Assembly: GCA_032718475.1 (NCBI GenBank)
Contig: JAUCBJ010007673.1
Coordinates: forward strand, 5,156 to 69,155
Direction: 5' to 3'
From: Nemertoderma westbladi
Taxonomy: Eukaryota > Animalia > Xenacoelomorpha
DNA length: 64,000 nucleotides
The position numbers and the translations under genes were made by a program. This document shows, in pieces, positions 3,369 through 36,367 of this stretch (the stretch's first letter is position 1; each line of letters starts with the position of its first letter). The notes under the pieces were generated by a model, which ran no database searches, was not told the origin of the DNA, and was given only the letters and a program-made list of their open reading frames with translations.

Positions 3369-3379
3369 ATAACAGTCAT
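3369..3379 (+). promoter_or_regulatory. E1 non-tRNA primer-binding site, complementary to its own LTR
   Basis: ataacagtcat abuts the LTR and is the exact reverse complement of atgactgttat at 2606-2616 (and 13335-13345). Followed by the hairpin actttattgc-agtaa-gcaataaagt (3382-3406). Confidence 0.8.
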
Positions 3380-5250: not shown

Positions 5251-5498
5251 ATACCGGTATTTACCATAGGCTTATTATATTTATTTCTATGGATTTGTGC
5301 TGAAATCATACCGGTATTCTGTAATTAATTCTAGTTCATAATTATACTTATATATACTATAAGTGTAAGCTGCATACCGGTATTCACGATAGGCCTATTA
5401 TATATTTATATATATTTGTGCTAAAATTATATACCTGTATTCTGTGACAAATCTAGTCTGTAATAATACTTATATATCTACTATAAGCATACCGGTAT
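5251..5498. repeat. Array of ATACCGGTAT palindromes with ~60-bp spacing upstream of gag
   Basis: Copies at 5251, 5308, 5374 and 5489, plus a degenerate copy at 5431. More copies in E3 at 57100-57470. Confidence 0.85.
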
Positions 5499-5633
5499 TC
5501 TAATATATTATATATATCACGCTACACTGAGTAGCAGTATCGGTAATTAATTATTAGGCTAACAGTGATACTGAATTACTAGACTTGCTTTAGCTGTAAT
5601 CATAGCAGTAGGCATTCAACTGTACAAACAAAC

Positions 5634-14930: not shown

Positions 14931-15320
14931 CGTCGTCGTCGTCGTTACGATTTTGACATGCTAATAACTTTGTCGGATTTAAAGCTGCCAAGTTGAAAAT
15001 TTGTAGGTATCAATATGAGCAAAAGTTGAGATTTTTGAGAGACTTTCAGACACCATCAGTGCAATGGTCTCCCGCTAGAGGGCCACATGTCTAAACATTA
15101 AATGCCCTCCCATTTCTTTGCTTTTAATCCGTTTAAGCTGAAACTTGGCAGATATGTATTAGACCATTAGCTGTGACTTTCAAAGGAGGCGAATCCATCT
15201 GCAGTTCTCCAGTCTGCCGCTAGAGGGCCAAAGGTCTGAAAGTGAAATCGTTGTCGTCGTTACGATTTTGACATGCTAATAACTTTGTCGGATTTAAAGC
15301 TGCCAAGTTGAAAATTTGTA

Positions 15321-17246
15321 TATAGAATTATATTCCCTAAATGCCGTGGATTTTCAAAATTTTATTTTATTCGAATTAACTTTGTAAAGATTGCTTTGAG
15401 TTCTCATTAGTATTGGTTCTATCTATTGTGTATCTATCGGTCAAGTGGTTCAGTAGCTCAGTTGGTAGAGCGTTGGAAATTATATGTGTAGTAGGTATCG
15501 AGTTCGAATCCTAATAAGTGCGAATTATTTTTTGTGCAGAATTTCAACTCATTTAAATTAACCGCTACAAATTAATTGCATTTGTCTGTACCAATGAGAC
15601 CGTAGTTATTTGATTGTAACCAATGTTGTGTAAGTTATATATTAGCTGGACCAATAAGCTATCTTTAAAACCTTGTTAGAACCTATAGAACAATCGAGAA
15701 TTTTCTCGATTGATTGCGGCACAAATTTGGTATAAAAAGGTGCGATTTCGTTCATTAATAAAATCTACTTTAGTTCACTTACTACTACTTTAGTATACAT
15801 TATCTTATCAATATTCTGTCGTGCTTAGTTTATTCTCAGATTACATTGTATTATAATTGTATCTTCTGTAATAAAGTCAGAATATTCTCTCAGCTTTTCT
15901 GTTTTACTATGGTTTCACTACGGTGAACAAACTCGGGGACAGGATGGCCAGCTAGAGATCGGGCCGCAGCAATGAACGGGAACATCACGGGAATGTAGAC
16001 GAGAGACAACCCGCAATACCATTTAGAGTTATTCGCCCATCGCCTGAAAGGTTAGACAGCGTTCGATCCTTGCTACCTAAGTGTAAGACCAAAAGATCAA
16101 AGGTAGACGTAGTGACACGCTGTAAGCCTAAAATTACATCATAGGGACTGTACTGTCTTGATTCAGGAAAAAACCGCAGTAGACCTTCATATTCCTACGG
16201 GAGGAGAGAGAGCAGATACTAGTACGCAGATAGGACGTAGGCACACCGGTACAAGGCATACACATTGGTTAGGGTGCAGCAAACTGTACGCTTAACTCTT
16301 GCTAAGTACAGGTGTGTGTGCGACTATTTGCAGTACGACCGTGTCTATTACATCAGAACTTGTAGGCTAGGGGGTTGCTGTGTTTTCACCTGAATTGGGA
16401 TTGTACCGTTCAGGCGGTAGGGCAGTTTACGCTAGGCGCAAATAAATTGAGGCTATCAGGGATATACTAACATCTACCGTGTCCCCGCCAACGCCCTAAT
16501 AGGAAGTTACCCGGACTACCTGGGTGACTAAAATTCTGGATAGGAGCCAGGATAGCTATTAGTACCCGTACGCCTACAGTAGTAAACTAACACATCTCTT
16601 CTTAGTATCAGGGACCTGGTACCTAAAATTGCCGAATTCTGGGCGTAGTATTAACCTTATGCCTGAATTTGAGTCCTGGAAATACGCAAGAGGGGAAGGA
16701 ACCTTATCATTCGTGAGTATTAGACCTACAAGTTATAAAATTAGAATATTCGTAAAATGCACACCGTACCCAGTAATTATATATGTGAAGGAGCAAAACT
16801 GCTTTGACCGTTCAGAATTAACACGCGCGCGTTAGAAATTATTTACACCTCAAAATATATAAAATTAACTTTCGTCCTTACTGCACTTTGCTCGCTAGTT
16901 AGACATCTCCAAATATCTGCCTCTGTACCTAGCTAGCGTCTCTTTGCCCAACCATATAAATCACACCGCGGCAAAGTATACGAGCCCCTTAGTCCGTCAG
17001 TGAGTCAGCCTGATTTTAGGATTCGCTGCGCGGGATTTTGTTTTATCGAAGTTTGTCTGCTCGTAGACTGTTTTCTGCCTCACCGGTTAAAAGAGATCGA
17101 TACTGCAATATATTCGCTTACTTAGGGTTTACTGTTTTGGTGAGAAGGTCGGATTTATGATTTGATTTACAAACTTTACAGTAGGATATTGCAGGTATTG
17201 TTACCGTCTCTTCCGATAGTAGGAATAGGCGTATCTCTCCAATTTA
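15321..17246 (+). repeat. E2 5' LTR (1926 bp, TA...TA termini)
   Basis: tatagaattatattccc...ctctccaattta. TATA box ggtataaaaagg near 15730 and AATAAA near 15757 and 15870. Confidence 0.93.
15447..15520 (+). other. tRNA-derived Pol III A/B-box segment inside the E2 LTR (also 33332-33405)
   Basis: ggttcagTAGCTCAGTTGGtagagcg ... gaGTTCGAATCC followed by a T-run. The anticodon and acceptor arms do not pair well. Confidence 0.7.
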
Positions 17247-17257
17247 GTAGGAATATG
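17247..17257 (+). promoter_or_regulatory. E2 non-tRNA primer-binding site, complementary to its own LTR
   Basis: gtaggaatatg is the reverse complement of catattcctac at 16188-16198. Followed by the hairpin ttttactgaac-TACG-gttcggtagga (17258-17283). Confidence 0.8.
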
Positions 17258-17465
17258 TTTTACTGAACTACGGTTCGGTAGGACTAAAGTTATTTGAAAA
17301 TTCTGTATTTTGAGGTAAAAATTTGTATTTGATTAGCTAAGTGCTAATTTTTTGAAATAAAATTTGATTTGAACCGCGTGTAAAATATTTTTGGAATTGA
17401 ATACCGGTGTTTAAAAAAGGGTTTAAATACCATATTGTACCGGTACAAAATTTTCGTAAAGTAAA

Positions 17466-17488
17466 ACCTAACTCTTTTGTTTTTTCAG
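17466..17488 (+). promoter_or_regulatory. Putative splice acceptor in the E2 leader
   Basis: Branch-like ctaac, polypyrimidine tract tcttttgttttttcag|G. Confidence 0.55.
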
Positions 17489-18056
17489 GATTCAGAACTC
17501 ATTTCTAGGCTGTAACGGGAGCAAGACCGTGTTTAGCAAGTTTGGGAGATAGATAACTCAACAACTTTGGTTGGGAAAATCGCGTTTCGTCCGCAACGTT
17601 AAAAACGGAAAGGTTCACGTCCGGTTTGTATCTGGGAATCTGTTTTTCTGGAGAATTATTGGAGTGGGTGAGTTTGAAAAGTTGCATAAATAAGTTAGGC
17701 ATTACCGTATTAGTTAAAATTATTGTGGGTTCCACTGTCTCAAGTATTTATGCATTCCGTACGATTTCTTTGTTCATTGCTGAATTAGTCCGTATTATTG
17801 TATTTAATTTACCTTTTGATAACGCATATCGTTATCCGATTTATTTGTTGTAAAATTGGCCGCTAGGCTAATTTTATTATATACTTATTCCGTGACATTT
17901 ATTTGCTGTAAAATTGGCCGTTTAGGCTAATTTTATCCATCTGCTATAAAATCGGCCGGTAGGCTAATTTTATATGACTGTAATTAGTACCGTTTTATAC
18001 AAATACGGTAAACTCGATACTTTGACACTCACTTCACTTGACTTACAACTACCGAA

Positions 18057-21000
18057 ATGAGTGACAAACAAGACTATACGAAGAATACACAAACCGACTA
18101 TGACTCATGTGACGGAGATAAGTCAGCAGCGGAAGAACAACAGGGGAAGACTCGCGAGCCTACCGAACCTACACCGTGTGCGTCACCAGTACATCCAACG
18201 GGAGTACCGGATGCCGTAGTACGAGGCGACGGCAGGACCGAGGACTTTCTAACTGTTCCGCAACCTAGATATAGGGAAACGGAAATGGTAAGTTCAGCAG
18301 GAAGCACAGAAAGTGTGGTTAGAAGCGTCGGTGGATACATGGCGCATATAACCAGGAGTATTGGAGAAGGCCAACGCATATTAGATGGGTTGACCGCTCC
18401 GATGTCTCGATTCGAGTTCTACACCCTCCAGGTTAGAGTACAGAGTAAAGTATATAAGTCCGTAGATAATCTAGTTGGCCTACAAGATCTAGCTAGACAG
18501 AGACAGGACATGGATACTCAACTTAGAATCCTCGAGAAACTAATGATCACTAGAGAGAAACTAATTCAGTTTAAGTCGACGATTAGACAGATACAACAGG
18601 AACAAGCGGACCAGTTGTTAGGTGAGTCAGTTTCGGACGAATTATTACAACCCGAGGAAGAACAGGAACTGTACCGACTGGATGGACAATTGGAACACCT
18701 GACGGACCACTTACGCATGTGCGGCGAAGACGTCGGCGATTTGGAAACCGTGCCGGAATACACGAGGGAAACTTCATTTGCACAAATCGAATCGGCACCG
18801 GGAATACTAAATCAATCATTGGTAAGTATTCGTAGCGAAATATGCGAAGGAAGTATAGTCACGTCAGAAGTTGCTCGACAACAGCAGCAGTTCTACAGAC
18901 AGCAACACGAGATGGAAGAACAAACTCAACTGCTAATGATACAAACAGCAGTAGAGGAAGAGAAAATACGTGTTGCGAATGTAGCGAGAATCTCTCATCT
19001 GCAGGAACAAGCCGAACTCGAAGCGGCCGAAATGGAAAGGTTAGAGTTGGACATTGCCCAACAAGCGGCAGCGACCGAGTTAGCGCAACGAACGGCAACA
19101 GCCGAGTTAGAGCGACAAACGGCAGCGGCAGCGGCAGAGTTAGAGCGACAAACGGCTGCGGCAGAGTTAGAGCGACAAACGGCTGCGGCAGAGTTAGAGC
19201 GACAAAGATTAGTTTCGGAAGCCAGAGTCGAGATGAAGACACGGCAAATAAAAGCCCAACAAGCGATACGACAAGCAGAGTTCGAGGCGCAACAACAACA
19301 AACGGAACAACGAGAAAAGGAAGTTAAACTTCGTTTCGAACTTGAAAAAAGGGCGAGAGAATTAGCCGAAACCAAGGAAAATCTGGATCTTCTAGCCCGC
19401 GACCGATCGATGAGATCTCGTGACGGACATGATTTGGACCAGTTAGAGGTAAGACATCGCCAAATTCAGGAACGGAAGAAGGAAGGAAGCGTAGGAGCAC
19501 CCAGACGGGAACGACAATTAATAAAAGACGTGTGTCAACGATTCCCACAGGTAACTCATATGTTTGCACCGGTTACGACTAAGGAACCTGTTTCGATTGC
19601 GGGTAGTAGTGATATTTCTCCTATCCATGGTGCGACGGAACACAGGTTTGTTATTCCGGACGAGTTTATACCGCCAAGAGCAGCGTCGTCGCCTATTCCG
19701 AGAGTCAAGGTAAGTAACCCACCGATTACAGATCGTAGTAGTTTATTGACCGGACCTGCGCTACTGACGACAAAACAGGTGAGTCCACCTTTGACACCTA
19801 AACCCGTTACACATTACGCTTACCCAATGACGTTTCGACCTACAAGGCCAGCGGTTTCAAATGCTGTCATCCGACCACCGGTCCAGTTTACATCGCAATC
19901 TACGACTTCGAGGAAGACTTGTGAGCCTACCGAACAACGGAGAACAGTGGATACGCGACCGTTTAACCAGTTCACATCGCAATCTACGACTTCGAGGAAG
20001 ACTTGTGAGCCTACCGAACAACGGAGAACAGTGGATACGCGACCGTTTAACCAGTTCACATCGCAATCTACGACTTCGAGGAAGACTTGTGAGCCTACCG
20101 AACAACGGAGATCAGTGGACGATGTTCCGAAACGAGCCGTTAGAATTCGAACGACGCAACGGACGCGAGCACGTCGACCACCATATCCAGATGATAGTAG
20201 TACTTCGAGCGAATCGGATTACCCGAAACGCGAGGTATTTAGAACAGGGGCGGCCGATGAATATAAACGCGAGCGTTCAGACAACTCCTTTGCAGACAAT
20301 CCTCCACAGAATACACCAACACAGAAGGCGTTACAACCAACGGACGCAATTAGTACACAACAGTTCGCCGACATTCTGCGACCAGTTGTCAACAAGTTGG
20401 CTCAGATCGAGGAGCGTCTGGAGGAAGTTCAAACCGATAGTTCGAGGAACACCGAATTCGAACACAATAGACACCCGAAGGCACCACAAAGACCGGTACC
20501 TTCAAACCCCACATCGTATCAGGGAAAAGCGCCCAGAAGGGAGAACATCAACCAGGTTACCAACCAAGGACGCGAAACTCTGAACGTTGCCGAGGAGATA
20601 GCGAAATTCGCAGCCAGACAAGGATTGCCGGTACAACAACCACCGAAGTTCTCCGGTAGCTCAAAACACTGGCATACCTTCGTAGACTATATCGAATCCC
20701 AGATCGCCGTGTGCGCCTTTACATCACGGGAGAAGTTCAATTACCTGCTCCAAACGTTGTCAGGAGAACCTAAACGTTTGGCGGAGACCTTCGTCGGTGT
20801 ACCGGACGCTTTCGAACTAGCGTACGATCGTTTGACTTCGATATACGGAGGTACAGTGAGTATGGCCAGGTCAGTAATAGAGGAACTCTGTAAGGGAGGG
20901 GCTATCACTAAACCCGTCGACTTACTAAAACTGGCTGACGAGATTAAGAACGCTATCACTACCTTAAGATCAATTGGACAACTTGATTACGGGAATACCC

Positions 21001-22976
21001 CTACAGTTCTATTAAAGATAATAGGACGACTCCACCATCGACTTCGTCGGGAGTGGAGGAAGGTCGAATACCAGCGAGAGGAGCGGGGAGGATTCTTAAA
21101 ATTAGAAGATGTGTACCTTTTAATATCCAGGGAGGCGGTAGTAGAAACTCGATCTAACTATACCGACCAGCACATCGTGGCAGAAGGGATCACACTGCCA
21201 TCCTCCAACCGACAAAAACCCCAGACAACATCCACAAAGACGGCCACTTACGCCACACCGACGGAATCACGACAATTCTCAGACGGTAATAGAGTATCTG
21301 CGCCCATTGGGACGAAACAGACGAGACAGCAACTCAGCGCCGACTTCAACGGCTGCCAATACTGCGAACATCTAGGTAAGCGGTATATTGGTCACAAGTT
21401 ACGAGGTTGTCGACAATTTCGCGAGTTGAACTCGGAAGAACGACGGCTGCAGATACGGCCACTGGACTCTTGTTGGCGGTGTACGCGACACGGACACGTC
21501 CGTAAGGATTGCCCAAATACCGACACTTGTCCATCCTGTGGACGCAACCACGACGGTCTGCTCCTCACAGACAGCCACACGCCGACGAAACGCTTCGCCA
21601 GGGAACACCCGGAAGCAGCAGCGAGATGTGATGCAGCCTACCGAAAACGAGAATCGAAAACGACTCCAACTTTCGTGACCCATATTGAGGATTGCTTCTC
21701 AGAACAATCCGGATCGTCGGACGAAGAATCAGAAAACGACGACGAATATTCTAATGGAAACGAACAACCGTCAATCGCGCTCCTGACCACTGACCAACTG
21801 AAGGGATTCAGTGTAATCCCGATTAAGGTTACTGGCACAAAGGGGAGTAAGAGGATTTACGCGATTCTAGATTCAGCCTCATCTCACAGTTACGTGGATG
21901 AAAAGATAGCTGACGTCGTAACGGATCTCAGACAAGGTAAACACGTCAGTTATACAGTAAGTAGTATGCATGGCCAGCGTGCAATACCAGTGACACGAGT
22001 TAAGTTGGACTTAGACTCTCTTCTTCCAAAATCGCAACACAGCGAGAGGGAGAGATCTTTGTTACCCTTTAGAGATCTAACCTTTGCGGCCACGAAGGAC
22101 TTTAGTAACCTACTAGGTCCAGTGCCGGAACAATCTCTGGAGGACCGTAAGTATTTCAGACACCTTGGTGTACCCGAATGTCCTGTCAATTATAGATCGG
22201 TAGCAATGCTGATCGGGACGGACCAATTCAACCTACATCAGGTGTGGGAAACCAGACCGTCGGCAGTTGTAGCAGGAAACGCATACGCCTGCAGAACGCC
22301 GATAGGGTGGTATACTCGAGCGCCTGTGCGCACACTAGACGTAAGTGACGAGGAAGACGATGTACAGAGTACATGTAGTTTATTAACTACAAATTCAATT
22401 CATTCCTTTTCACACGACATGGACCATACTACACTACAGTCGACAAAACATGACAGACGTGTAACTAGTATGATAAGTCACAAGGAGCAGCTAACCCACA
22501 AGGTGAGTTTAGAACTTGGGGAGAAGACGAATCAGCTAGAGATTCCATCGACGACAGATGATAGGCTTGCGAGTCTACCTACCCCAATAACCTCAACAGT
22601 GCCCGTCGATATCGATGATGACGCGTTGAGAAATCATCAGTTGGAACAAGCCGCCTTGGACAAAGAATTAACGGAGAAGACTATCAGGTGGTTAGAACAA
22701 GATACAGCTGAACCTGGTAGCTACGAACCTTGCATGTCGGAACAGGAGAAACAATCTCTAAAGATCATGGAAGATACTATCCGACAGACGGAGGACGGAC
22801 ATTACGAGGTGGGGATGTTATGGCGTAGCCAAAGTCCTAAACTTATAAATAACTACCCACTGGCTTTAAGACGTCTACACTCAATACGACAACGTCTATT
22901 AAAGGACGAGAAAGCCCATCTGCAGTACAACACTCAGATGGAGACGTATTTGACTGAAGGATACGCTATCCGAATG
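18057..22976 (+). CDS. gag: E2 gag-pol 5' part (Gag, zinc knuckles, aspartic protease, pre-RT region)
   Basis: PKFSGSSKHWHTF Gag core, CWRCTRHGHVRKDC knuckle, protease AILDSASSHSYV, GHYEVGMLW and NNYPLALRRL BEL motifs. Interrupted after GYAIRM by a 1205-bp insertion. Confidence 0.92.
19883..20120 (+). repeat. 84-bp tandem repeat x3 in E2 gag
   Basis: QFTSQSTTSRKTCEPTEQRR repeated. The motif starts at 19912, 19996 and 20080. Confidence 0.95.
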
Positions 22977-24181
22977 ACTAACCCGGAGCGAGTACCTAAA
23001 GAGGTGAGGTCTCTATAGGGGTGCTCGGAAAAGGCGGCGGCGGACTCGTGAGGGTCTGGGGGCACGTTAAATCTGGGTTTATAGTGCTAGGGAGATACTT
23101 AAGGCCCTCGTGTCTAACGAACCATGAATTGCCATGGTGCCGTGGTTCCGTCTAGTCGGCCTGTTGCCGTACTGCCAGTCCTGTACACAGTAGGGGTGGT
23201 GGCATGGCGTGATTTGTGGCTCATGTGGCGTGAACTATGTTTTGTATGTGGGCGATCAGTGGCAGTTTGCTTGGGGCTTGGATGGTTCCATTGACCGTCA
23301 GCTGTTCCGTTTTTTTGATACTATATGTTATTGTCTCCATGTTCAGCTGATTGGTCTTTGGTGGCATTGGAAAAACCGTCGGGTCTTGAGCTTTCTGTTG
23401 CTGTGGGTACGTGAGTACACGTGATTGTATGTGTGGCCACTGCGAGTGGGTATGGGAACCCTTGCCAGTTGGACAAGACGCCGCTGGTATTAGTAGGACC
23501 ATACTCTACTGCACCCCAGCATACTTTGTGCACACAAAGTTATTTTACCCTGTCGGTAAAATAAGGTACTCTCGACTCTTTTCGAGTTTCAGTCGATACA
23601 ATTTTGTCCCTTCCGATTTTGTCTTTCCCGATTTTGACCTCGATTTTGTCTTACCCGATTATGTCCTCTGTGTGTGCATGGTATGTGTCAGATTTTGTGT
23701 TTACCGTAGTGTACTTGATTTCGTGAACATCTGTTGAGTACACGTGTACAGGACGGGTAAGTGGTTACTTGTTCCTAGCTTTCGAGTTAGTCAGTATTGT
23801 TGAGGAACGGTGTCCCCTCAATACTGCCGGCGAGGCAGGTGAAAACGTGTCAATATTCCATGTTGGGTAGCGCAAGCCCGCTTGGGACAAGACCGTCGGT
23901 TAGGCCCAAGGGCGACCTTGGTGCTCGATCGCTATCGACTGGTCCACCTGCCGGTTGACTCTTTGTTATACTTTGAGTTGGCTCAATGTACAGTCAGGCC
24001 ACAGTAAGTTGACAGTAGCCGCTCATCTGGCTACACGTTCGACGAGCTGTGCCGGTGTGATCGGGGGACCGAAAACAGAACCCGGGAAGCATCGGGCCAC
24101 CCTGCGGCCTGGTTTGGTTTGTCACCGGCCCCCAGGGTGGTGGAAAGGTGTCCGCCTCGTGGGTGCGCCTCGGGGAGGAGC
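22977..24181. mobile_element. 1205-bp GC-rich structured insertion of unknown class in E2 pol, no TSD
   Basis: Removing it gives GYAIRM-PEGHKWTDQTYYLPHHYV, which aligns without gaps to E3 GYAERVPEETPITERTYYLTNHYV. Hairpins lie near both ends. Boundaries are uncertain by a few nt. Confidence 0.75.
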
Positions 24182-27100
24182 CCAGAAGGACACAAGTGGA
24201 CCGACCAGACATACTACCTGCCACATCACTATGTGAGACATCCCGACAAACCAGATAAAGTACGCGTAGTCAATGACTGTGCGGCTCTGTTTGAGGGAAT
24301 GTCCCTCAATAGTGAGTTGATGGATGGACCGAACATGAATAATTATCTTATGGGGGTGATTATGCGCTTCCGTCAGCGTCAAGTAGCCTTTACTTGCGAC
24401 GTTGAAGCGATGTTTCACCAAGTAAAAGCGTTAGAGCGAGACAGAGACAGTTTGCGGTTTCTCTGGTATCCGGAAGGGGACTTAAGTCTACCACCAGCGA
24501 CTTACCAAATGCAAGTTCGCGTTTTCGGTGCCAGAGACAGCCCAAATTGTACGATGTACGCCTTGAAGCAAGCCGCTAGAGATCAGAAACATCTGTATGA
24601 CCCAGAGATAATTAGAATTGTAGAACGTGACTTTTACGTTGATGACGGTTTACAAAGTTGCGACACAGTAGAACGTGCTACAATAGTAGCACATCAATTA
24701 CGGGACTGCTTGGCGGGCGGAGGTTTTAACCTCACCAAATTCGCCTCAAACAGTGCCGAATTAGTTGACTCATTCGGAACTACTGAGCGTGGAGGAGGTG
24801 ATATAGACCTAGAGTTCGAACCACTACCGACGACTAAGGTGTTGGGGCTCTTTTGGGACCCAAACACAGACAACTTTCGAGTGAAGGTGAGACTGGACAG
24901 TCAAGGGAACACGCTGACCAAGAGATCATGCTTGTCAAAATTGAGCCGATTGTTCGATCCGTTAGGATTCATCAGTCCAGTGATACTGCAAGCCCGCATT
25001 TATATGCGCAGTATATGGAAGGATGGACTAACATGGGACGAGCCGATCTCATCAGACCAAGTGGACTTATGGAAGACCTGGGAGGCGGAATTGTCTTCGC
25101 TAGAGGATTATTTCATACCCAGGGTTTACTTTCCATTACAGAGTACATTTCCTGACAACTTGGAACTACACTGTTTTTCTGACGCCAGTGACAACGGTTT
25201 TGGTGTGGCAGCGTATTTGCGCAGACAAGTAGAATCAGACGAGTTCGATGTTTCGCTCATTACTTCTAAGGCTAAGACCATGCCTACTAAGTATATGACG
25301 ACACCACGAGCCGAGCTACAAGCCGCAACCCTGTCAACCACCATCGTGAACCTCATACAGACAGAACTACAGTCGAGTTTACAGATATTTTATTGGACTG
25401 ACGCGACGTTAGTTTTATTTTACATAAACAACGACACTCTCGAATTCAAGACATTCGTAGCTAACCGTCGCGCGGAAATTCTAGACCGTTCAATAAAAGA
25501 GGATTGGCGACATTGCCCCGGACCACAAAACCCAGCTGATATTGCGTCGCGAGGAATGATGCCTGAGGAATTCTGTAAACCGGAGAACAAAGAGTTTTGG
25601 CAACACGGACCCCAGTTCTTGCAGAAATCGACACAAGATTGGCCTCCGTTATACGACAACAAGTCCAACACTATTCCCAAGGACGCCGAAATCAAAAAAC
25701 CAAAAAGGGGGAAGACAAAGAAAAAGACAACGGCGGCAAAACTCAAGAAAAAACCGAAGGCGAAATGGAAGGATATAACTTCAAAGGTCAAGAGAGGAAG
25801 ACTTGCGAGCCTTTCTACACCAGACATATCGCCAGACGGTCAACCAGACACGTTACCAGACGGTCAACCAGACATGTTACTAGACAGCCAACCAGACATT
25901 TTGCCAGACATATCACAAAATGTTCCACCAGACGCTAGTAACACACTGACATACAGTAAAGCCGCAGTTTCCCTATTGGAGCGGCCTTCTATTGACAAAC
26001 AACCAGATACGTTACCAGACGTATCGCCAGACACATTACTAGACAGTCGACTAGACATTAGTAATGTATCGACTAACAATAAAGCCGCAGTTTCCCTATT
26101 GGAGCGGCCTTGTATTGACAAACTACCAATTTTGACACACTTGAGCAACCATAAGCATGGTGAAACCTCATGTATTACAGATGTGGGTAGTACCTACGCT
26201 AATGTAAATACAGGTGTTACTTTGCGCTCAAGAGACATACCGAACTTACAACCTACGGTGAGACCTGGGATTAATGTCGGCAGGAAAATAAGTTTACCGA
26301 AACCTGCTGACCCCATAGAGTTCAAACCACCATTAACGATCGACTTACAAAGTACCGACAATCAAGGTAAGAAGACAAAGAAGGACAAATTACTTGTAGA
26401 CCCGGACGGATCAACAGTCAACAAGGGAATACTTACCGGCGGACCCGTGGGCCCTTCTAGTAATTCAAAACCTTCCAAATTCTCCATTGACTTACCTGAT
26501 GACGTCACAAATACTCATGTCGACCGTATTGTAAACCTAACAGATTCTTGGTCAAACGCTTGCCGAAAATTAGCGTGGATTGTACGTTTTGTACAATACG
26601 TTAAAGGCAAACGTGACTTTACACGTCGACTTACATTGGCTGAGATTGACAGGTGTGAGATTAAATTAATTCGCCATTACCAACTGCGATATTTCGCGCG
26701 CGAATTCACATCTATACATCAAGGTCAACCAATCAAGTCGTCACCGATACTGAGTTGGAGTCCGATTATTTACAATGGCTTAATTTGTCATAAATCTCGG
26801 CTTCAAAACATTGACTTTAACACAAACTTTAGGTACCCAATAATAATACCGCAACACCACGAACTACAACGTGCAATGATACTGGACGCACATCTACATC
26901 TGAAACACGCTGGAAGACACCACTGTCTTTCCTACTTACGTACTAGATTTGTATTAATTAGACCCAGTAAAGCATTAAGTTCCGTGACACGTACGTGTAT
27001 TATTTGTAAAAAGGTACATTCTAGAATAGGTACCCAAGAAATGAGTGAACTACCACAAGCACGACTTCAAGCATTCAGACCACCTTTTACAGAGACTGGA

Positions 27101-28027
27101 ATTGATTGCTTTGGTCCCATACATACGAAACGTGGACGTATACTAGTAAAACGCTGGGGACTGATTTTCACATGTATGTCCAGTAGGGCAGTTCACATTG
27201 AACGTGTGATGGATCTTTCCACCAACGCGTTTATACTAGCACTGCGGCGATTTATCGCTAGACGCGGACTAGTAAAATGCTTGTACTCAGACCAAGGGAC
27301 AAACTTTGTTGGTGCTCGGAATGAGATTGCTAGAGCCTTTAAGAAATTAGATCATGATCAAATCTCGAACGAACTGCAACCTCACAAGATTGTTTGGAAG
27401 TTCAATCCTCCAGATAGTCCTTGGAGAGGCGGAGTCTGGGAGAGATTGATTAGATCTATCAAAACGGCCATGGCAAAGGTCATTCCAGTAAACCACATAT
27501 TAACAGACGACCAACTGACAACATTGTTTGTTGAAATCGAGGCAATACTAAATACTAGACCAATAGTATTAGTACCCGATGACAAACAATCTCAGTTCGC
27601 TTTAACACCAGCACACCTGCTTATGCAGGCACCGACCACATTGACGCCGATTTCCATTCCAATGGAAAGCGATAGCTACGGTAGAAAAGCGTGGAAAATC
27701 ACGCAACTACTGGCTAACAAATTCTGGGAAATATGGCAAAACCATTATTTGCCCTCTATTTCTGCCAGAACAAACTGGTACAATAACACCCGCGCATTAA
27801 AGCCGGGAGATCACGTGCTGTTGGCAGAAGTGAATCTAAAAAGACGCTTCTGGATAACAGGTGTCATTTTAGCCACACATCCATCTATGGATGGAGTGAC
27901 AAGAACTGTGACGGTACGGACAATTGACGGTCGTACAGTAGACAGACCGACTCAACGTCTCGTACTTCTTGAAGAGACTCGTAACGAGTCTGGAGATTAC
28001 AAATCTCCACCTAATACTAGTAAATAA
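24182..28027 (+). CDS. pol: E2 pol 3' part: RT, RNase H, integrase
   Basis: RT: VAFTCDVEAMFHQV and DFYVDDGL. Pao RNase H: LHCFSDAS, TPRAELQAA, YWTDA, NPADIASRG. Integrase: HHCC zinc finger and DDE (GIDCFGP, YSDQGTNF, WERLIRS). Confidence 0.95.
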   Translation, partial: PEGHKWTDQTYYLPHHYVRHPDKPDKVRVVNDCAALFEGMSLNSELMDGPNMNNYLMGVIMRFRQRQVAFTCDVEAMFHQVKALERDRDSLRFLWYPEGDLSLPPATYQMQVRVFGARDSPNCTMYALKQAARDQKHLYDPEIIRIVERDFYVDDGLQSCDTVERATIVAHQLRDCLAGGGFNLTKFASNSAELVDSFGTTERGGGDIDLEFEPLPTTKVLGLFWDPNTDNFRVKVRLDSQGNTLTKRSCLSKLSRLFDPLGFISPVILQARIYMRSIWKDGLTWDEPISSDQVDLWKTWEAELSSLEDYFIPRVYFPLQSTFPDNLELHCFSDASDNGFGVAAYLRRQVESDEFDVSLITSKAKTMPTKYMTTPRAELQAATLSTTIVNLIQTELQSSLQIFYWTDATLVLFYINNDTLEFKTFVANRRAEILDRSIKEDWRHCPGPQNPADIASRGMMPEEFCKPENKEFWQHGPQFLQKSTQDWPPLYDNKSNTIPKDAEIKKPKRGKTKKKTTAAKLKKKPKAKWKDITSKVKRGRLASLSTPDISPDGQPDTLPDGQPDMLLDSQPDILPDISQNVPPDASNTLTYSKAAVSLLERPSIDKQPDTLPDVSPDTLLDSRLDISNVSTNNKAAVSLLERPCIDKLPILTHLSNHKHGETSCITDVGSTYANVNTGVTLRSRDIPNLQPTVRPGINVGRKISLPKPADPIEFKPPLTIDLQSTDNQGKKTKKDKLLVDPDGSTVNKGILTGGPVGPSSNSKPSKFSIDLPDDVTNTHVDRIVNLTDSWSNACRKLAWIVRFVQYVKGKRDFTRRLTLAEIDRCEIKLIRHYQLRYFAREFTSIHQGQPIKSSPILSWSPIIYNGLICHKSRLQNIDFNTNFRYPIIIPQHHELQRAMILDAHLHLKHAGRHHCLSYLRTRFVLIRPSKALSSVTRTCIICKKVHSRIGTQEMSELPQARLQAFRPPFTETGIDCFGPIHTKRGRILVKRWGLIFTCMSSRAVHIERVMDLSTNAFILALRRFIARRGLVKCLYSDQGTNFVGARNEIARAFKKLDHDQISNELQPHKIVWKFNPPDSPWRGGVWERLIRSIKTAMAKVIPVNHILTDDQLTTLFVEIEAILNTRPIVLVPDDKQSQFALTPAHLLMQAPTTLTPISIPMESDSYGRKAWKITQLLANKFWEIWQNHYLPSISARTNWYNNTRALKPGDHVLLAEVNLKRRFWITGVILATHPSMDGVTRTVTVRTIDGRTVDRPTQRLVLLEETRNESGDYKSPPNTSK

Positions 28028-28686
28028 TTAGGAGTTTAAAAATAGATTTCCACGTACCTGTACACCGTAGTAAGGACAGCGGTAGAATTCCATTGTCTTT
28101 ATATGTGAACATTGAGGGTAGTACCCTTATGTGTCACATAGGAGCGGGATTTGTAGGTATAAGAAATGGAATTCTACTTGGAACTCACAATATTGAGACA
28201 TTTTCGAAATTTTAGACAATCCATTTGGATTTGAAAAATTTTTAAAATTTTCTCCAGTGAATAGATTTCAGGGTACAGTCGGGTGGAACTTAAAATTAGA
28301 GAAACAAGAGAGGAAGACTTGCGAGCCTTTCTTAAAATTTTAATTAAATTTTACACGGTCTTGTTTCAATAAGTTACGTCAAAATAGACTCCCCTATATT
28401 TATTACTAATTCTTGACTGCTTATTTTCTGATAATAGTTTGGGATCAAAAAGTGAGTATTTTAGACTCACAGCCAGTTTAGCCCAAAATTCGTTTTTATT
28501 TCGGCAAAAAATTTTAGATAAGAAGCAGCGTGTCATTAAAGAAACCCTAGATCTTAGGCTATGGGTAGGAGGTTAGAGCGTTGTCGAGCCCAAAGGGCAG
28601 ACGAAACTCTCACGTCTCCTCACAACTAACTACAAACTCTGTTGTATTCCCTCTAGTAGTAATGATTATGTAACTACACCCTAATT

Positions 28687-31600
28687 ATGGAGAAAGGGAT
28701 ACAAGGAGAGCCGAGATGGGGATATGATATCCAAGAGGAGGCAGCAGCGCCATTCGAAAGATTTGGAGCCAAGGATTACACTATATTTGGTATAAAAGAA
28801 TTATCGGAAAGTACAGCGAAACTCGCGAGAACTAAATATGACTCGAATGTATTAAAGAGAAGGCAAAACGCATTGAACGAAAGAATCGAAAGTTTGCGCC
28901 AAACCTTCAATGAACTTTACCCGTACGATGCTTTGTGTGACACGGGAGACATTAGCGAAGACCCCGATACTGAAATTAGTCGTTTGTATCATACCATGCA
29001 ATACCTAAAGGCGCATGAACCTATGCCCGCGGTACGCGATGAATTCGATGGAATGCATCTTTACAGACGAACTCGAGGGGACGATAGAGAAACCAAGGAA
29101 GCATTTTCAGTTTATAAACTTTATTATCAATGCGGTTCTTGTATGCGCGAACAACGAAATGCGATTCCGATGCGTTTGAATAAGGAAAATCCCGAACCGA
29201 TATTGGCGAGGTGTTCGAATCATCAACAACTACGCTACCAGGAAGGAGGGTATCCTTTATCGAATCCATATCATTCATTTGCTATGACCGGACCAAAGGC
29301 GGGAGAAACTGTCATTTACCCACCTAAGGTTGTTGAACCCGATGTATTTGAACTTACGCTGGACGAGGCGAATCAGTCAACCCGCGAAAAGAAAGAAGCT
29401 CTTAGCCTATACAGAGCCTACAAGGCTTTCGAGAAAGGTGAGATGGAAGAATGGGGTGGAAGACTCGCGAGCCTACCTTGCCATTGGACGTCACACGATC
29501 AAACTTCAGCTAAGGAGATGACACCGGAAGTTTTCGAGAGCATAAACTTTGCTCAAAACGTTATTCAGAGACTACAGATTGCATCCCCGGAGAGGCCAAG
29601 AGAAATGCAACCGTATAGTACTTCAACTACGAAACCATTGAGTACGACACTCAATTTCCCTATTAGTATACCAGTCCGACAGGATACGACGTACGAAATA
29701 CCCATCGTGGATCATCCAGAAATCATTTCAAACTTGGAGTTTCTTCCTGCAGTTGTTTTCAGCGATATGAGTAAGATATATGATTTACGTAGACATATTA
29801 CTCAAAAGGTCGTGAACAACGTTCCACCTCATATCCAAGATTTTAAGGAACTGGATAGAGCTGGTGCCGACATAGCTCCGAGTAATCTGAAAGGATATCT
29901 AACCAAGACGATTCGTTTATGGATTGGAACCGGAACCTTCGAGTCGGATACGGATATTGCCGCAGATTGGCGAGGTAAGGTTATTCGTTTCGATGAGGAT
30001 AAGGATATAGAGAAGATTTGGCAACCTTCGGAAGAATTGTTGGATGAATGGACTAGGACGTTTAGATCGTTTCAGGAAAACGGTTATATGTTTTACGATA
30101 ACGAGGGCGGCAGTCATCAGCAGAGTTTGACTTCTAAGACTATACAGATTAGAGCGGCGGACGGAGTCCTGCACGTTTTCAGTAGACAGAGGAGCGACAA
30201 ACGAATGCCGATACCTCCAGCGAATACAAAGCGACACCATCTTATCACCGATATAGTAAAGAAGATGGACCAAGCTTGTAATATTGACGCTAGAATGCTA
30301 CCGAAGATGGTAAGAAACATGATTTTAGATAAAACTGTTGTAAAGGTTGGATCAGGAGTAAGGGAGGATCTAATTAGCGACTTCGCCGGCATGACGGACA
30401 GCGATGACCGACTACCGACACCATACGTCGACACTCGACCTCTTATTCTGTGGTCTATAGAACAGGGATATTTTCGTGAGTATAATACTCAGAAGACTGG
30501 CACTGGATACATTTCCTACCTGTTATTCAATTGGGATTATAAGGAAGGTAAAAGGAACAAGTATATTGAAACTTATGGAGAAGGTGATACTCCAGATATG
30601 AGTGAGTTTGAATCACAGCTTAAATGGAGAGGATGCGTGTATTGGGCTATTACGTCACCTCCAAGAGCGGTCTTACAATATTATTTAGCGATAGAGTCGT
30701 CAGTGAATGTTTGCCTAATCGCCGACATTGTGTCTCGGACTCTCAAAAGACATCCACTTTGTCTCGGAGAAGATCATACGTTCTACATGGAAGGGAGAAT
30801 TCGTACCGACGTGTTTAGACGATTCCTTGAACCCTTCTACAACTCCGACGCTCAGTGTAATGCCTTTACTCGAGCAGGATTTAGTATATTTCGAGACGTG
30901 TATCTTCGCTGTGCGGGATCTCTTATCGAAAGACCATCTATGTTTACATTGTTACCCTATGAAGGAGAACGTATCGTGGAGATTATGGATGAATCACGGC
31001 AGACGCGCGCGCCTATCGGTCACCTTGGTGATGAATTCGAAGTAACTACTACGATCGCCGACGATCCTTTAGAGGAACTTCTTGAGATTGAAAGGAACCT
31101 CCCGAAGAAATCTCAGACGGAGATTCGACAACTTGAAGCAACAGATGCTATAGTTTGCCTACAACCTTCAGAAACCTACCAACCCATAGACCCAGATGAT
31201 TACGATTATAGTATGGGAGGAAGCGCTCGACCGATTGGAGATCTTATATACGAACGAGTGTGGTACCCTGCCAATACGATGTGTAATAAATGTGGCGTCG
31301 CTGGACATCATATGGCAAAGTGCAGTGGAAAGCACATTACTACGACTCAGCTAATCTGTGGATGGTGTGGGGATCAAGGGTCTCATACCTTTTATACTTG
31401 CTGGAGATTTATGGCTCAATGTACTTACTGCAATATAAAGGGACATCGAGCATCTGAATGCCAACTGAGAGACATACCTTATGAACACGAATCTGTAAAA
31501 CTCGTGAGGAAGTTATTTGATGAGTGGGAAGATTTGGCCGACGAACATGTATCGGCACAAAGAAGACGGTTTCCGATGAGAGCGCATCTCGGATTTTGGG

Positions 31601-32412
31601 CGGTAAATCCTCAAACGATGATGTCGGAAGGATATATCTCCGCTATGCCCCAATATGACGAACTTATCGAGGTTGTCGATATTTTGCCCCACTACAGCGG
31701 ATTCCGAGTGGTGCGCGAGTATCTGTTACAAATTCACCCGGATAACAAAAACACGTGGAATTTTCAGAAAGTCGTTAATCGGATTACGTATGGTGAATTC
31801 GATCGTTTCCGAACTGAAAAGCGGAACAAAGGAGCTTGGTTAACCGTCGCATGGGCGTACCGAGCCGCGTTTTACCACAAACGTATACGAGCGAGCGTAT
31901 TCGAGGAAGAAGAGGTCCTAGAGGCGACAAATATACCAGCCACTCCGGTTGCGCCGTCTGCACGTCACCCTCGAGAGGACGGACAGGGTAGGATCATACG
32001 GGTCCAGAAAGTGGGCCAACAATTGAAGAAAATTATTAATGTAGAAGAACGCAAGGGAGTTGAGCCGACTATTCGAGTTACTCGGGATACGGTATCACTT
32101 CCAAGAGAACCGGTAGGAGGATCGGGACATACACCAGCTGATCAACAGGGGGCGCAAGCTACTCTTGGGTCTGCGTCGTCCACTCCTCGCGCGTTCCCAG
32201 ACGTTCTACCAACTGTAGCGACAACTGATCGGTCACGAGGAATTGGTCGAGGTTTTGGGATGCCAAATAGACGAATTTGCGAGGAAATAGTTGCACCGTC
32301 TCTCAACGTCCCAAGTAAACCAGTGACTCGCCCCATTAGTCCCATATCGCGAGCAAAGTCACCTGTGCGCAGTTTTCGAGGACGCGGCAGGGCTCGATCT
32401 ACTAAGCGATAA
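28687..32412 (+). CDS. E2 ORF3: DEDDy 3'-5' exonuclease (WRN/EXD/Mut-7-like) with CCHC zinc knuckles, 1241 aa
   Basis: ExoI MFYDNEG, then IQIRAADGVLHVF, LPKMVRNMILDKTVVKVGSGVREDL (ExoII), PYVDTRPL and YYLAIES (ExoIII-like). Knuckles CNKCGVAGHHMAKC, CGWCGDQGSHTFYTC and CTYCNIKGHRASEC. Preceded by an acceptor-like actaac...ccctctag ending at 28656. Confidence 0.8.
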   Translation: MEKGIQGEPRWGYDIQEEAAAPFERFGAKDYTIFGIKELSESTAKLARTKYDSNVLKRRQNALNERIESLRQTFNELYPYDALCDTGDISEDPDTEISRLYHTMQYLKAHEPMPAVRDEFDGMHLYRRTRGDDRETKEAFSVYKLYYQCGSCMREQRNAIPMRLNKENPEPILARCSNHQQLRYQEGGYPLSNPYHSFAMTGPKAGETVIYPPKVVEPDVFELTLDEANQSTREKKEALSLYRAYKAFEKGEMEEWGGRLASLPCHWTSHDQTSAKEMTPEVFESINFAQNVIQRLQIASPERPREMQPYSTSTTKPLSTTLNFPISIPVRQDTTYEIPIVDHPEIISNLEFLPAVVFSDMSKIYDLRRHITQKVVNNVPPHIQDFKELDRAGADIAPSNLKGYLTKTIRLWIGTGTFESDTDIAADWRGKVIRFDEDKDIEKIWQPSEELLDEWTRTFRSFQENGYMFYDNEGGSHQQSLTSKTIQIRAADGVLHVFSRQRSDKRMPIPPANTKRHHLITDIVKKMDQACNIDARMLPKMVRNMILDKTVVKVGSGVREDLISDFAGMTDSDDRLPTPYVDTRPLILWSIEQGYFREYNTQKTGTGYISYLLFNWDYKEGKRNKYIETYGEGDTPDMSEFESQLKWRGCVYWAITSPPRAVLQYYLAIESSVNVCLIADIVSRTLKRHPLCLGEDHTFYMEGRIRTDVFRRFLEPFYNSDAQCNAFTRAGFSIFRDVYLRCAGSLIERPSMFTLLPYEGERIVEIMDESRQTRAPIGHLGDEFEVTTTIADDPLEELLEIERNLPKKSQTEIRQLEATDAIVCLQPSETYQPIDPDDYDYSMGGSARPIGDLIYERVWYPANTMCNKCGVAGHHMAKCSGKHITTTQLICGWCGDQGSHTFYTCWRFMAQCTYCNIKGHRASECQLRDIPYEHESVKLVRKLFDEWEDLADEHVSAQRRRFPMRAHLGFWAVNPQTMMSEGYISAMPQYDELIEVVDILPHYSGFRVVREYLLQIHPDNKNTWNFQKVVNRITYGEFDRFRTEKRNKGAWLTVAWAYRAAFYHKRIRASVFEEEEVLEATNIPATPVAPSARHPREDGQGRIIRVQKVGQQLKKIINVEERKGVEPTIRVTRDTVSLPREPVGGSGHTPADQQGAQATLGSASSTPRAFPDVLPTVATTDRSRGIGRGFGMPNRRICEEIVAPSLNVPSKPVTRPISPISRAKSPVRSFRGRGRARSTKR

Positions 32413-33205
32413 AAGGGAGGGCAAGGGTGGACGGAAGACTCGTGGGCCTTTCTTATGATTTGTGATTTATTTTGAATTATATGTTTTATATTTAGAAAAT
32501 TTAGTAAACTTATATTTTATATTTGTGCTTATTTCGAACTTATGCAATTTGTATTGTTCCGAATTTATGAAATTTAGAAATAAGAACTCATATTTAGTAA
32601 ACTTATATTTAGTAAGAATTTATATTTTATATTTACGTGATTATTTCGAACTTATGCAATTTATATTATTCTGAACTTATGCAATTTATATTGTTCCGAA
32701 TATTATGCAATTTATATCTTATAAGCAGTATTTGTATTTACAGTGAAATAGAAAGTTTTATAGATAGAAAATTTGTGCCCAGAAAGACTCATATTTGTAA
32801 TTATTCCAAACTTATGCAATCTACATTTAGGTACGAAAGTATTTGTAATTACTTGAATTTATGCAATATTTGAGATGCAATAGTAGATGGAAGACTCGCG
32901 AGCCTTTCTTATTGTTTTCATTTATTTGTATTTGTAATTGTTTGAATTTATGCAATATCTGAGATGCAATAGATTTATATTGGTGAATTTAATTTAGATT
33001 TATATTGTACTTACTTCGTAAAGCCTTAACTACGTAAAGTTTGAATTTGTAATTATTTTTGTATCGAATCATTACGTAAAAGGGAAGTATTGTTTGAAAC
33101 TTAATTGTAAATATGTAAGTACGCCCTAAGTATTTTATAGTTTGATTGATTATTGGTGAAAACCGTATATTTTATGCACGATAATATCCTGTTTTCATGG
33201 AGCGG

Positions 33206-36200
33206 TATAGAATTATATTCCCTAAATGCCGTGGATTTTCAAAATTTTATTTTATTCGAATTAACTTTGTAAAGATTGCTTTGAGTTCTCATTAGTATTG
33301 GTTCTATCTATTGTGTATCTATCGGTCAAGTGGTTCAGTAGCTCAGTTGGTAGAGCGTTGGAAATTATATGTGTAGTAGGTATCGAGTTCGAATCCTAAT
33401 AAGTGCGAATTATTTTTTGTGCAGAATTTCAACTCATTTAAATTAACCGCTACAAATTAATTGCATTTGTCTGTACCAATGAGACCGTAGTTATTTGATT
33501 GTAACCAATGTTGTGTAAGTTATATATTAGCTGGACCAATAAGCTATCTTTAAAACCTTGTTAGAACCTATAGAACAATCGAGAATTTTCTCGATTGATT
33601 GCGGCACAAATTTGGTATAAAAAGGTGCGATTTCGTTCATTAATAAAATCTACTTTAGTTCACTTACTACTACTTTAGTATACATTATCTTATCAATATT
33701 CTGTCGTGCTTAGTTTATTCTCAGATTACATTGTATTATAATTGTATCTTCTGTAATAAAGTCAGAATATTCTCTCAGCTTTTCTGTTTTACTATGGTTT
33801 CACTACGGTGAACAAACTCGGGGACAGGATGGCCAGCTAGAGATCGGGCCGCAGCAATGAACGGGAACATCACGGGAATGTAGACGAGAGACAACCCGCA
33901 ATACCATTTAGAGTTATTCGCCCATCGCCTGAAAGGTTAGACAGCGTTCGATCCTTGCTACCTAAGTGTAAGACCAAAAGATCAAAGGTAGACGTAGTGA
34001 CACGCTGCAAGCCTAAAATTACATCATAGGGACTGTGGGGCGAGCCACGAAGTGAGTGAGCCTTAGCGTAGTGGTACCATTAATCAACCTGTCGTTCTGT
34101 CGTTCTGTCGTTCTGTCGTTCTGTCGTTCTGTCGTGTTCAATTTTAAACGTTAATAACTCAGCCAATCTTTGATGAAATCTATCCAAACTTGGTACACAT
34201 GTTGTTTGGCAAAAGTTTAGAAATTTTCCAAGTAGAATTTCCGTGTGGCCTTCGAGAAGCTAAGATAATAGCAGTTAATTAGTTAATTAAGTTGATTACG
34301 GTGAAAACACAATTTTCAACCTGCCTTTTAAAGGAAATTAATTGTTTTACAGTATAAGATTTAAATAATTATAATTAAAAATTATACAGATGTAATCCAC
34401 ATACGCCATTCTATTATAGTTTTTAATTAGTTCAAGTGATTTGCTTTAATAATTGTGTCTTTAATTGATCTAAAGTAATTAAAACGGCATAAAAAATGGA
34501 TTCTCATTAAATACTGATCATTTATTGGCCAACTTGCAAGTTGGCTGGTACATAGATGGGGGATGTGTGTGTAAGGGAGCCAGTTGCTGGGAATGCCAGT
34601 GGAGGGGGGTTGTATGTAACTAGCCACACGGCTGCCAGCTAGACCTAACGAGATTGAAACCTGCATTCCCTACCTCCTATTACACTATAGAGTCTGTGTT
34701 CTTTAGTCTCAGGTAATAGACAGATCTCATTTAATGATTGTCAGTCAATAAGATTACCACTGCAGAAGGCTTATATCCAAAATTGTTTATTTCTCAAAAT
34801 ATTATGCTTATTATTTTTTGATGGGATTTCTGTGTATTTTAATTGTCTAAGTTTTCAGAGGCATTAACAGTATATTAAATAAATTATTTGAATATCATTC
34901 ATTACTGCATCGACTGTATTTAGTACTGCGTAGATTATATTCCTATAAACCACCTGGCTTCGCATATTGAACGTGCGATTGGAAATAAGTTCGTGCTACC
35001 TTCCGTGGGTGGTAGATGTCGCGGTTATGTATTGGTGGGTGGGAAGGGTGGGGGGGGGGGGGGGGTGGGGTGGGGTGGGGTGGGGTGGGGGTGCAGATTT
35101 AAAGGGCTGAACACGTACTGTCCCTCTTTTTTTGATTGATTGGCGGTGTGGTTAAATTTCTAAATTTTACTAATTTATAAAGTTAAATACTGATTTTGTG
35201 ATACAGTCGCTCGATATTAATTTGTATCTCATAACTGGGCCTCGTGTTGCGCGAAGGCCCCACGAACGTGTACTGTCTTGATTCAGGAAAACCCACAGTA
35301 GACCTTCACATTCCTACGGGAGGGAGAGAGAGCAGATACTAGTACGCAGATAGGACGTAGGCACACCGGTACAAGGCATACACATTGGTTAGGGTGCAGC
35401 AAACTGTACGCTTAACTCTTGCTAAGTACAGGTGTGTGTGCGACTATTTGCAGTACGACCGTGTCTATTACATCAGAACTTGTAGGCTAGGGGGGTTGCT
35501 GTGTTTTCACCTGAATTGGGATTGTACCGTTCAGGCGGTAGGGCAGTTTACGCTAGGCGCAAATAAATTGAGGCTATCAGGGATATACTAACATCTACCG
35601 TGTCCCCGCCAACGCCCTAATAGGAAGTTACCCGGACTACCTGGGTGACTAAAATTCTGGATAGGAGCCAGGATAGCTATTAGTACCCGTACGCCTACAG
35701 TAGTAAACTAACACATCTCTTCTTAGTATCAGGGACCTGGTACCTAAAATTGCCGAATTCTGGGCGTAGTATTAACCTTATGCCTGAATTTGAGTCCTGG
35801 AAATACGCAAGAGGGGAAGGAACCTTATCATTCGTGAGTATTAGACCTACAAGTTATAAAATTAGAATATTCGTAAAATGCACACCGTACCCAGTAATTA
35901 TATATGTGAAGGAGCAAAACTGCTTTGACCGTTCAGAATTAACACGCGCGCGTTAGAAATTATTTACACCTCAAAATATATAAAATTAACTTTCGTCCTT
36001 ACTGCACTTTGCTCGCTAGTTAGACATCTCCAAATATCTGCCTCTGTACCTAGCTAGCGTCTCTTTGCCCAACCATATAAATCACACCGCGGCAAAGTAT
36101 ACGAGCCCCTTAGTCCGTCAGTGAGTCAGCCTGATTTTAGGATTCGCTGCGCGGGATTTTGTTTTATCGAAGTTTGTCTGCTCGTAGACTGTTTTCTGCC

Positions 36201-36367
36201 TCACCGGTTAAAAGAGATCGATACTGCAATATATTCGCTTACTTAGGGTTTACTGTTTTGGTGAGAAGGTCGGATTTATGATTTGATTTACAAACTTTAC
36301 AGTAGGATATTGCAGGTATTGTTACCGTCTCTTCCGATAGTAGGAATAGGCGTATCTCTCCAATTTA
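33206..36367 (+). repeat. E2 3' LTR, interrupted by the 34037-35268 insertion
   Basis: Matches the 5' LTR on both sides of the insertion. Preceded by ggagcgg and followed by the TSD ttgta. Confidence 0.93.
34037..35268. mobile_element. HINE/Helentron-like non-autonomous element inserted at TGT in the E2 3' LTR
   Basis: The empty site in the 5' LTR reads gggactgtactgtc; here tgt flanks both sides. Sub-terminal inverted repeat gagccttagcg / cgcgaaggccc, (CTGTCGTT)n microsatellite, terminal hairpin gggcctcgtg-ttg-cgcgaaggccc. Confidence 0.75.

Follow-up and report, generated by a model that had tools for sequence, protein, structure and literature searches.

We analyzed a 64-kb stretch of Nemertoderma westbladi DNA (64,000 nucleotides of contig JAUCBJ010007673.1; hereafter, the window), in which three BEL/Pao long terminal repeat (LTR) retrotransposons, E1, E2, and E3, are located. 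The internal region of E2 contains 12 copies of a 20-nt imperfect palindrome, all between positions 18145 and 32908 (14.8 kb), and ten of these copies are independent. The motif is real and non-random, and it is a cis element specific to the E2 family. As a tentative explanation, to which we assign a probability of roughly 0.45, we propose that the 12 motifs constitute a family-specific self-pairing tag on the E2 sense RNA, which would act as a distributed dimer site or zinc-knuckle site. We infer both the level at which the motif works (RNA or DNA) and its partner.

Number and Distribution of the Motif Copies

All ten starts given in a preliminary description of this DNA carried the motif, eight of them exactly, 32433 with one mismatch, and 22560 with two (on the minus strand). 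Since 19912, 19996, and 20080 belong to a single 84-nt tandem triplication, however, the ten dispersed copies described there amount to eight independent ones. A matrix was built from these eight copies, and the whole window was scanned against a Markov null. The scan added a copy at 30998, which scored 20.5 bits (0.005 expected in 16 kb), and a less secure one at 26438, which scored 11.4 bits (0.145 expected in 16 kb); this brings the independent sites to ten, with gaps of 0.46-3.2 kb. A search allowing three mismatches gave 14 matches at 11 places, compared with 0.03 expected (0 of 100 shuffles), and a pairing descriptor detected 12 sites on the E2 sense strand, compared with 0.31 in shuffles. 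In a de novo search, the motif was the top dispersed repeat of E2, with 8-9 clusters, whereas no comparable dispersed 16-20-mer was found in E1 or E3 (best, 3-4 clusters). The coordinates of the copies and of the other features are listed in Table 1.

Pattern, matrix, and 3-mismatch searches detected no copy in E1, E3, or the two LTRs of E2, in agreement with the preliminary description. The E2 leader (17247-18057) also contained no copy. The exact pattern had no match in viral contigs. In a metagenome collection, it matched 26 loci once each; none of the 26 was in a retroelement, and none had a match to the element proteins. DNA-level relatives of E2 were found among neither the viral nor the metagenome contigs. 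With the Rfam covariance models, 21.7 kb yielded a single match with an E-value of 0.93, far under the gathering score.

Table 1. Motif copies and other features of E2 (positions in the window)
Feature	Position	Strand	Remarks
Copy 1	18145..18164	+	Center CGCG; gag N-terminus, phase 1 (KTREPT)
Copies 2-4 (19912, 19996, 20080)	19912..20099	+	Center TGTG; in 84-nt tandem triplication (KTCEPT)
Copy 5	22560..22579	+	Swapped arms or inverted; sense center TGCG; G.U at 6/15 (RLASL)
Copy 6	25796..25815	+	Center TGCG; enlarged linker (RLASL)
Copy 7	26438..26457	+	New, degenerate, least secure; center CGTG; double changes at 4/17 and 8/13
Copy 8	28312..28331	+	Spacer between pol and ORF3, non-coding; family contigs have T or C at position 9
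Copy 9	29458..29477	+	Center CGCG; N-terminal part of ORF3 (RLASL)
Copy 10	30998..31017	+	New, degenerate; center CGCG; double transversion at 8/13
Copy 11	32433..32452	+	20 nt past ORF3 stop; center CGTG; U.G at 8/13
Copy 12	32889..32908	+	3' untranslated region (UTR); center CGCG
5' LTR	15321..17246	+	TA...TA ends; no motif copy; 99.5-99.9% identity to 3' LTR
Likely intron of ORF3 RNA (GT..AG)	17668..28656	+	Contains 8 of 12 copies
gag, protease, and start of reverse transcriptase (RT) in one open reading frame (ORF), with CCHC knuckles	18042..23018	+	DUF1759, E 3.6e-11; knuckles at about 21340-21590 (zf-CCHC, E 0.003, below cut-off)
Extra sequence interrupting RT	22989..24198		About 1.2 kb; no motif copy
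pol ORF encoding the remainder of RT, RNase H, and integrase; enlarged RNase H-integrase linker	24008..28027	+	Peptidase_A17, DUF5641, Integrase_H2C2
ORF3	28666..32412	+	Likely DEDDy-type 3'-5' exonuclease-like domain; three CCHC-type knuckles
3' LTR	33206..36367	+	Carries 1.2-kb foreign insert (34037-35268); no motif copy

Constraint on the Nucleic Acid

As the preliminary description had stated, the motif occurs in gag, pol, ORF3, and the spacers. Nine of the 12 copies lie in ORFs, in two phases, and three are non-coding. One phase reads KTREPT, KTCEPT, or QTRAPI, and the other reads RLASL or GPVGPS. Since the copies are read in two phases and three are not translated at all, the constraint is on the nucleic acid, as had been suggested, and a protein-level constraint is rejected. 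The sharp 20-nt boundary and the restriction of the repeat to E2 agree with this conclusion. Among the 120 pol relatives listed (35-44% identity), the peptide RLASL occurred once and KT[RC]EP never, which is little informative at such distance.

Mean pairwise identity is 0.44-1.0 within the 20-mer and mostly 0.2-0.35 outside it, falling to background within a few bases. Eight columns (G1, G5, C7, G10, G12, G14, C16, and C20) are invariant. The flank shared between copies measures 0-7 nt, and these remnants point to short-patch duplication. The 28-nt identity reported for the copies at 25796 and 28312 (from 25789 and 28305) was found, and it consists of 7 nt to the left, the 20-mer, and 1 nt to the right.

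The center is YGYG on the sense strand in all 12 copies, including the arm-swapped copy at 22560. Among the ten independent copies, seven C>T and no G>A changes were observed at the center. Since the observed/expected CpG ratio in E2 is 1.15, without depletion, and the changes are one-sided, CpG decay is not favored as the sole cause of YGYG.

Self-Complementarity of the Sense Strand

Pair 8/13 occurs as U-A, U.G, C-G, and G-C, pair 4/17 as A-U and G-C, and pair 6/15 as A.C in 11 copies and G.U in one. C.A+ has been reported to be isosteric with G.U (PMC5769748). Three symmetric double changes preserve pairing, two at 8/13, to different bases, and one at 4/17. The covariation score of the sense strand was 0.268, compared with 0.170 +/- 0.042 (14 of 500 shuffles), and it was above all slid controls; that of the antisense strand was 0.228 (65 of 500 shuffles). 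The tool cautions against reading these shuffle counts as probabilities and notes that shuffles may be beaten by rows related to one another.

The sense RNA is self-complementary, with a predicted homoduplex of -8 to -24 kcal/mol, as in sites of the dimerization initiation site (DIS) type. The energy was -15 to -24 kcal/mol in nine of the 12 copies and -8 in the tandem three, whereas the isolated sense hairpin is marginal, at -0.4 to -4.2 kcal/mol, probably because of the A.C opposition at 6/15. The central eight positions are paired in the sense homoduplex of every copy, whereas they are broken on the antisense strand in eight of the 12. The two degenerate copies pair with themselves at -19 and -22 kcal/mol, compared with -9 to -15 with canonical forward copies. 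Self-complementarity of the sense strand, with G.U allowed, would account for the C>T-only center, for U.G at 8/13, for the double changes, and for a T/C site found in the family (position 9 of copy 8).

We therefore read the suggestion of a packaging or dimerization signal in two parts. Dimerization is modestly supported by the variants. Strict packaging is weakened, because no copy lies in the leader and four of 12 would be retained in a likely spliced ORF3 RNA. Under the self-pairing tag, the copies would have entered tolerant linkers through duplication of short patches, after which selection would have retained only the 20-mer. The tag RNA would pair with itself, either as a weak hairpin or as an in-register duplex between two genome copies. 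The knuckles of Gag or ORF3 may bind the G-x-G center, and by such binding the E2 RNA might be dimerized, condensed, or sorted apart from sister families.

Several substantial results weigh against this explanation. The leader is devoid of the motif, and E1 and E3 do without it, although an ORF3 homologous to that of E2 is present in E3. In the likely spliced ORF3 RNA, eight copies would be lost and four kept. The covariation depends on two degenerate copies picked post hoc, and one of them (26438) is possibly due to chance, since control loci, mostly GC-rich and 196 kb in total, contained 14 other sites of at least 11 bits. Seven transitions alone are unremarkable given a transition share of 73%. 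Folding, with an energy model that contains no A+.C pairs, also argues in this direction. In a 320-nt context, the sense hairpin reached a probability of at least 0.5 in three of 12 copies, and none of the eight 50-nt windows tested folded better than shuffles (z, -1.15 to +0.84). On the antisense strand, the isolated hairpin was lower in energy in 11 of 12 copies and the homoduplex in eight of 12, and pairing amounted to 84%, compared with 81% on the sense strand.

Two further observations concern the leaders. Eleven bases just past the 5' LTR (17272-17282) are complementary to the 3' end of copy 1 and its flank (18159-18169), and ten bases there are complementary to copies 2-4; this is possibly a long-range pairing and possibly chance. 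On the sense strand, the leaders at 3369-5600, 17247-18057, and 57001-59261 are enriched in the hexamer TAGGCY (12, 4, and 15 occurrences, compared with 1.3, 0.1, and 1.4 expected from shuffles), partly through tandem repeats. It may be a leader signal common to the three-element lineage. In some E2 motif copies, the 3' arm is the complement of TAGGCY.

Alternative Explanations

A close rival of the RNA tag, which we regard as possible, is a double-stranded DNA operator. A 20-bp dyad about every 1.5 kb would be bound by a dimeric protein of the host or the element, keeping the provirus open or marking its chromatin. Symmetry is seen among the invariant positions of the arms (G1, G5, and C7 with G14, C16, and C20), and the copy at 22560 is most simply an inversion with two differences (the alternative being a forward copy with swapped arms), which suits DNA. 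Folding lends the sense hairpin no support. Arginines of zinc fingers accept (5mC/T)pG on one of the strands, and CGCG or CGTG/CACG serves as the binding site of BEN proteins (PMC11514455). VANC motifs, too, are family-specific and multiplied by duplication (PMC5735166, available part). However, an operator would not be expected to show the symmetric double changes of pair 8/13 (two, with different bases) and pair 4/17, and 11 of 12 copies have the same orientation; in the twelfth, YGYG stays on the sense strand and does not follow the arms. The 1.9-kb LTRs have no copy, although this absence is not significant (about one expected), and no DNA-binding domain was identified in ORF3.

An RNA-level kin-recognition code is unlikely. 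ORF3, made from spliced RNA, would bind the 12 tags and thereby protect, export, or co-package E2 RNA while excluding sister families. This would be the counterpart, at the RNA level and in a BEL/Pao element, of the plant VANC system. The earlier idea that the motif is an ORF3 ligand is weakened, because E3 has a homologous knuckled ORF3 (27% identity) and no motif.

It is rather improbable that the copies are a neutral, functionless by-product, in which a pause or template-switch hot spot of reverse transcription copies itself in short patches. Duplications are indeed seen (the 84-nt triplication, the 28-nt identity, and an apparent extra piece in the 3' UTR in two studies), the copies are located in expanded, tolerant linkers, and template switching predicts their common orientation. 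Neutral patches should nevertheless decay evenly, whereas the 20-mer has a sharp boundary, and none of the 15 deletion joints listed (of 71) ends in the motif. The least probable explanation is that every sense transcript carries a site recognized by a host RNA-binding protein (for export, stability, or localization), read mainly as sequence with the palindrome secondary, because, even though YGYG lies on the sense strand and copies occur in the unspliced and likely spliced RNAs, two of them in the 3' UTR, it leaves 20 constrained positions with dyad symmetry unexplained and no Rfam family matched.

Variation in the E2 Family and a Likely Spliced RNA

The E2 stretch was found, whole or in part, in five of nine listed sequencing runs, from four studies. 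None of the five is recorded as RNA, which says nothing about expression. In four runs, 20,268, 748, 8,843, and 64 contigs matched E2. The family is large and varied, and these contig counts give no copy number. Across E2, 4.2-4.8 places per 100 nt vary at a level of at least 10% (666 places in run X1 and 767 in run X4). In the 141 nt around copy 8, motif position 9 had the sole substitution listed at a level of at least 1%, a T>C change carried by 11 X1 contigs and three X4 contigs. The spacer as a whole thus varies little, and because the flanks are equally invariant, the motif is not separable from them there; in this comparison, a short stretch loses variants near its edges, and some contigs derive from the 3' UTR copy. 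None of the 40 variant places listed (of 960) fell in the motif, which is uninformative, since about 0.6 would be expected.

In contigs of runs X2 and X4, from two studies, 32756 is followed by 32882, and 32917 leads back to 32749. Thus, an extra 36-nt piece centered on copy 12 appears to be present in some 3' UTRs of the family.

In one X2 contig, position 17666 is joined to 28656, with GT..AG ends. The local sequence agrees with an intron in its donor (17667/17668), acceptor (28656/28657), pyrimidine tract, and branch-like CTAAC, and a spliced ORF3 RNA, in which the leader is joined to just before ORF3, is likely. The X2 depth increases toward the 3' end, as poly(A) RNA would; the run is labeled DNA by guess, and the contigs cannot show the level.

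Structure of E2 and Its Surroundings

E2 lies on the plus strand at 15321-36367, with the 5-bp target duplication TTGTA on either side. The paired LTRs and short target duplication of BEL/Pao elements are both present, and the ORFs encode a DUF1759 gag, a Pao RT/RNase H region, Peptidase_A17, Integrase_H2C2, and DUF5641. On these sequence features, E2 is classed as a young BEL/Pao LTR retrotransposon. It has 685 relatives, with a best identity of 44%. The RNase H-integrase linker spans 633 aa, compared with a median of 383 (106 of 120 relatives listed), and two motif copies are inside it.

The extra sequence that interrupts RT contains no long ORF, and nothing else in the window matches it. 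Its depth in runs X1 and X4 is about that of the rest of the element, and contigs lacking it occur in all four runs. It may mark a common non-autonomous sublineage of E2.

The LTR termini are TA...TA, not TG...CA. No TGG-type primer-binding site was found beside the 5' LTR of E1, E2, or E3 (3369-3400, 17247-17290, and 59230-59261, respectively). A tRNA-like stretch lies at 15450-15512 and is repeated in the 3' LTR; it contains what we take to be A-box- and B-box-like motifs. ARAGORN at its default setting called no tRNA gene, and the stretch was called only after the threshold had been lowered, when many chance calls appeared as well.

The foreign insert, confined to the 3' LTR, has ends similar to sequence near 14400 and 14825, which suggests another mobile element. 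Direct repeats of 319 nt, 98% alike, border E2 (15001-15320 and 36368-36686), which places it within a host or mobile unit that is tandemly repeated. E1 and E3 match each other at about 85-90%, and both are far from E2 (pol, about 44%), and the LTRs of each pair are near-identical. At 5583-9791, E1 is without most of pol, and its gag ORF continues into short matches to the ends of RNase H and integrase. A degraded fourth ORF3-like remnant (40698-41650) precedes the 3' LTR of E3.

ORF3

Over 714 columns, ORF3 is 27% identical to the ORF3 of E3, which also has knuckles. Its center was exonuclease-like by language-model features (Atlas, 0.92; 24 of 30 matches in the PF01612 set). YDNEG, D, and YxxxE are kept in E2 and E3, and we take them to be the Exo I-III acidic residues of a DnaQ-like domain. 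The central domain is likely of the DEDDy-type 3'-5' exonuclease-like kind. The knuckles sit after this part, at about 31240-31500 (zf-CCHC, Pfam E 0.003, below the cut-off). No Pfam or PDB match to an exonuclease was found, protein searches at near and shorter lengths gave no matches, and the predicted model (pLDDT 31.8) was unusable.

Comparison with Known Systems

The comparisons below draw on the available parts of the cited papers. By analogy, the motif would work most like the dimer or nucleocapsid (NC) sites of retroviruses or the dispersed packaging signals of RNA viruses. The retroviral sites (DIS-1/DIS-2 of Moloney murine leukemia virus, DIS and SL2 from human immunodeficiency virus 1 (HIV-1), and SL-C of Rous sarcoma virus; PMC7599994) are likewise imperfect palindromes that form a hairpin or an intermolecular duplex. 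The murine pseudo-palindromes give rise to extended duplexes between molecules, and in a GGUG loop the two exposed Gs are bound by the knuckles of HIV-1 (PMC7599994). The G-x-G center of the E2 motif resembles such knuckle-bound tetraloops, and E2 encodes CCHC knuckles. In retroviruses, however, the 5' leader carries between one and a few distinct sites of this type, whereas E2 has one motif 12 times, nine of them coding and none in the leader. By its position, the motif is outside the leader DIS/psi class.

The dispersed packaging signals of MS2, parechovirus, and hepatitis B virus (PMC6281560) are, as in E2, many scattered sites sharing a motif, including sites in coding sequence. They are degenerate stem-loops with short shared motifs (PMC6281560), whereas the E2 copies are near-identical 20-mers with a sense hairpin predicted in three of 12. 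Unlike those signals, four E2 copies would remain in a spliced RNA.

The anti-silencing motifs of VANDAL/VANC, Arabidopsis DNA transposons (PMC5735166), are likewise family-specific and multiplied in an element that encodes an accessory protein. As with them, the E2 motif is absent from the sister families (E1 and E3). VANC sites, however, are non-palindromic DNA motifs of 8-9 bp, arrayed in tandem in non-coding sequence (PMC5735166), whereas the 20-nt dyads of E2 lie mostly in coding linkers; nine of 12 are in ORFs, and the sole tandem array is in gag. No link between ORF3 and VANC was seen. The motif is not of the VANC class and does not belong to any Rfam family.

For Cer1 CERV of C. elegans (PMC10309623), an accessory protein is made from a spliced RNA, as is likely for E2 ORF3, although the E2 splice comes from one contig. 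The rotifer elements Juno and Vesta (PMC5408684) carry a DEDDy-like ORF3 after pol, as E2 likely does. In the available parts of these papers, no repeated cis motif is described for Cer1 (PMC10309623) or the rotifer LTR elements (PMC5408684), in contrast to E2.

Significance

Among the papers listed by full-text searches, which leave most subscription papers outside, we found no paper on cis signals for RNA selection, dimerization, or protection in BEL/Pao elements, none on the function of an exonuclease-like ORF3 in such an element, and no report of a repeated motif of this kind. A 20-nt motif present 12 times, with natural variants and a sister family lacking it, is a ready probe. Whether the outcome is RNA or DNA, E2 would be an LTR retrotransposon that writes a self-recognition tag into its coding linkers.

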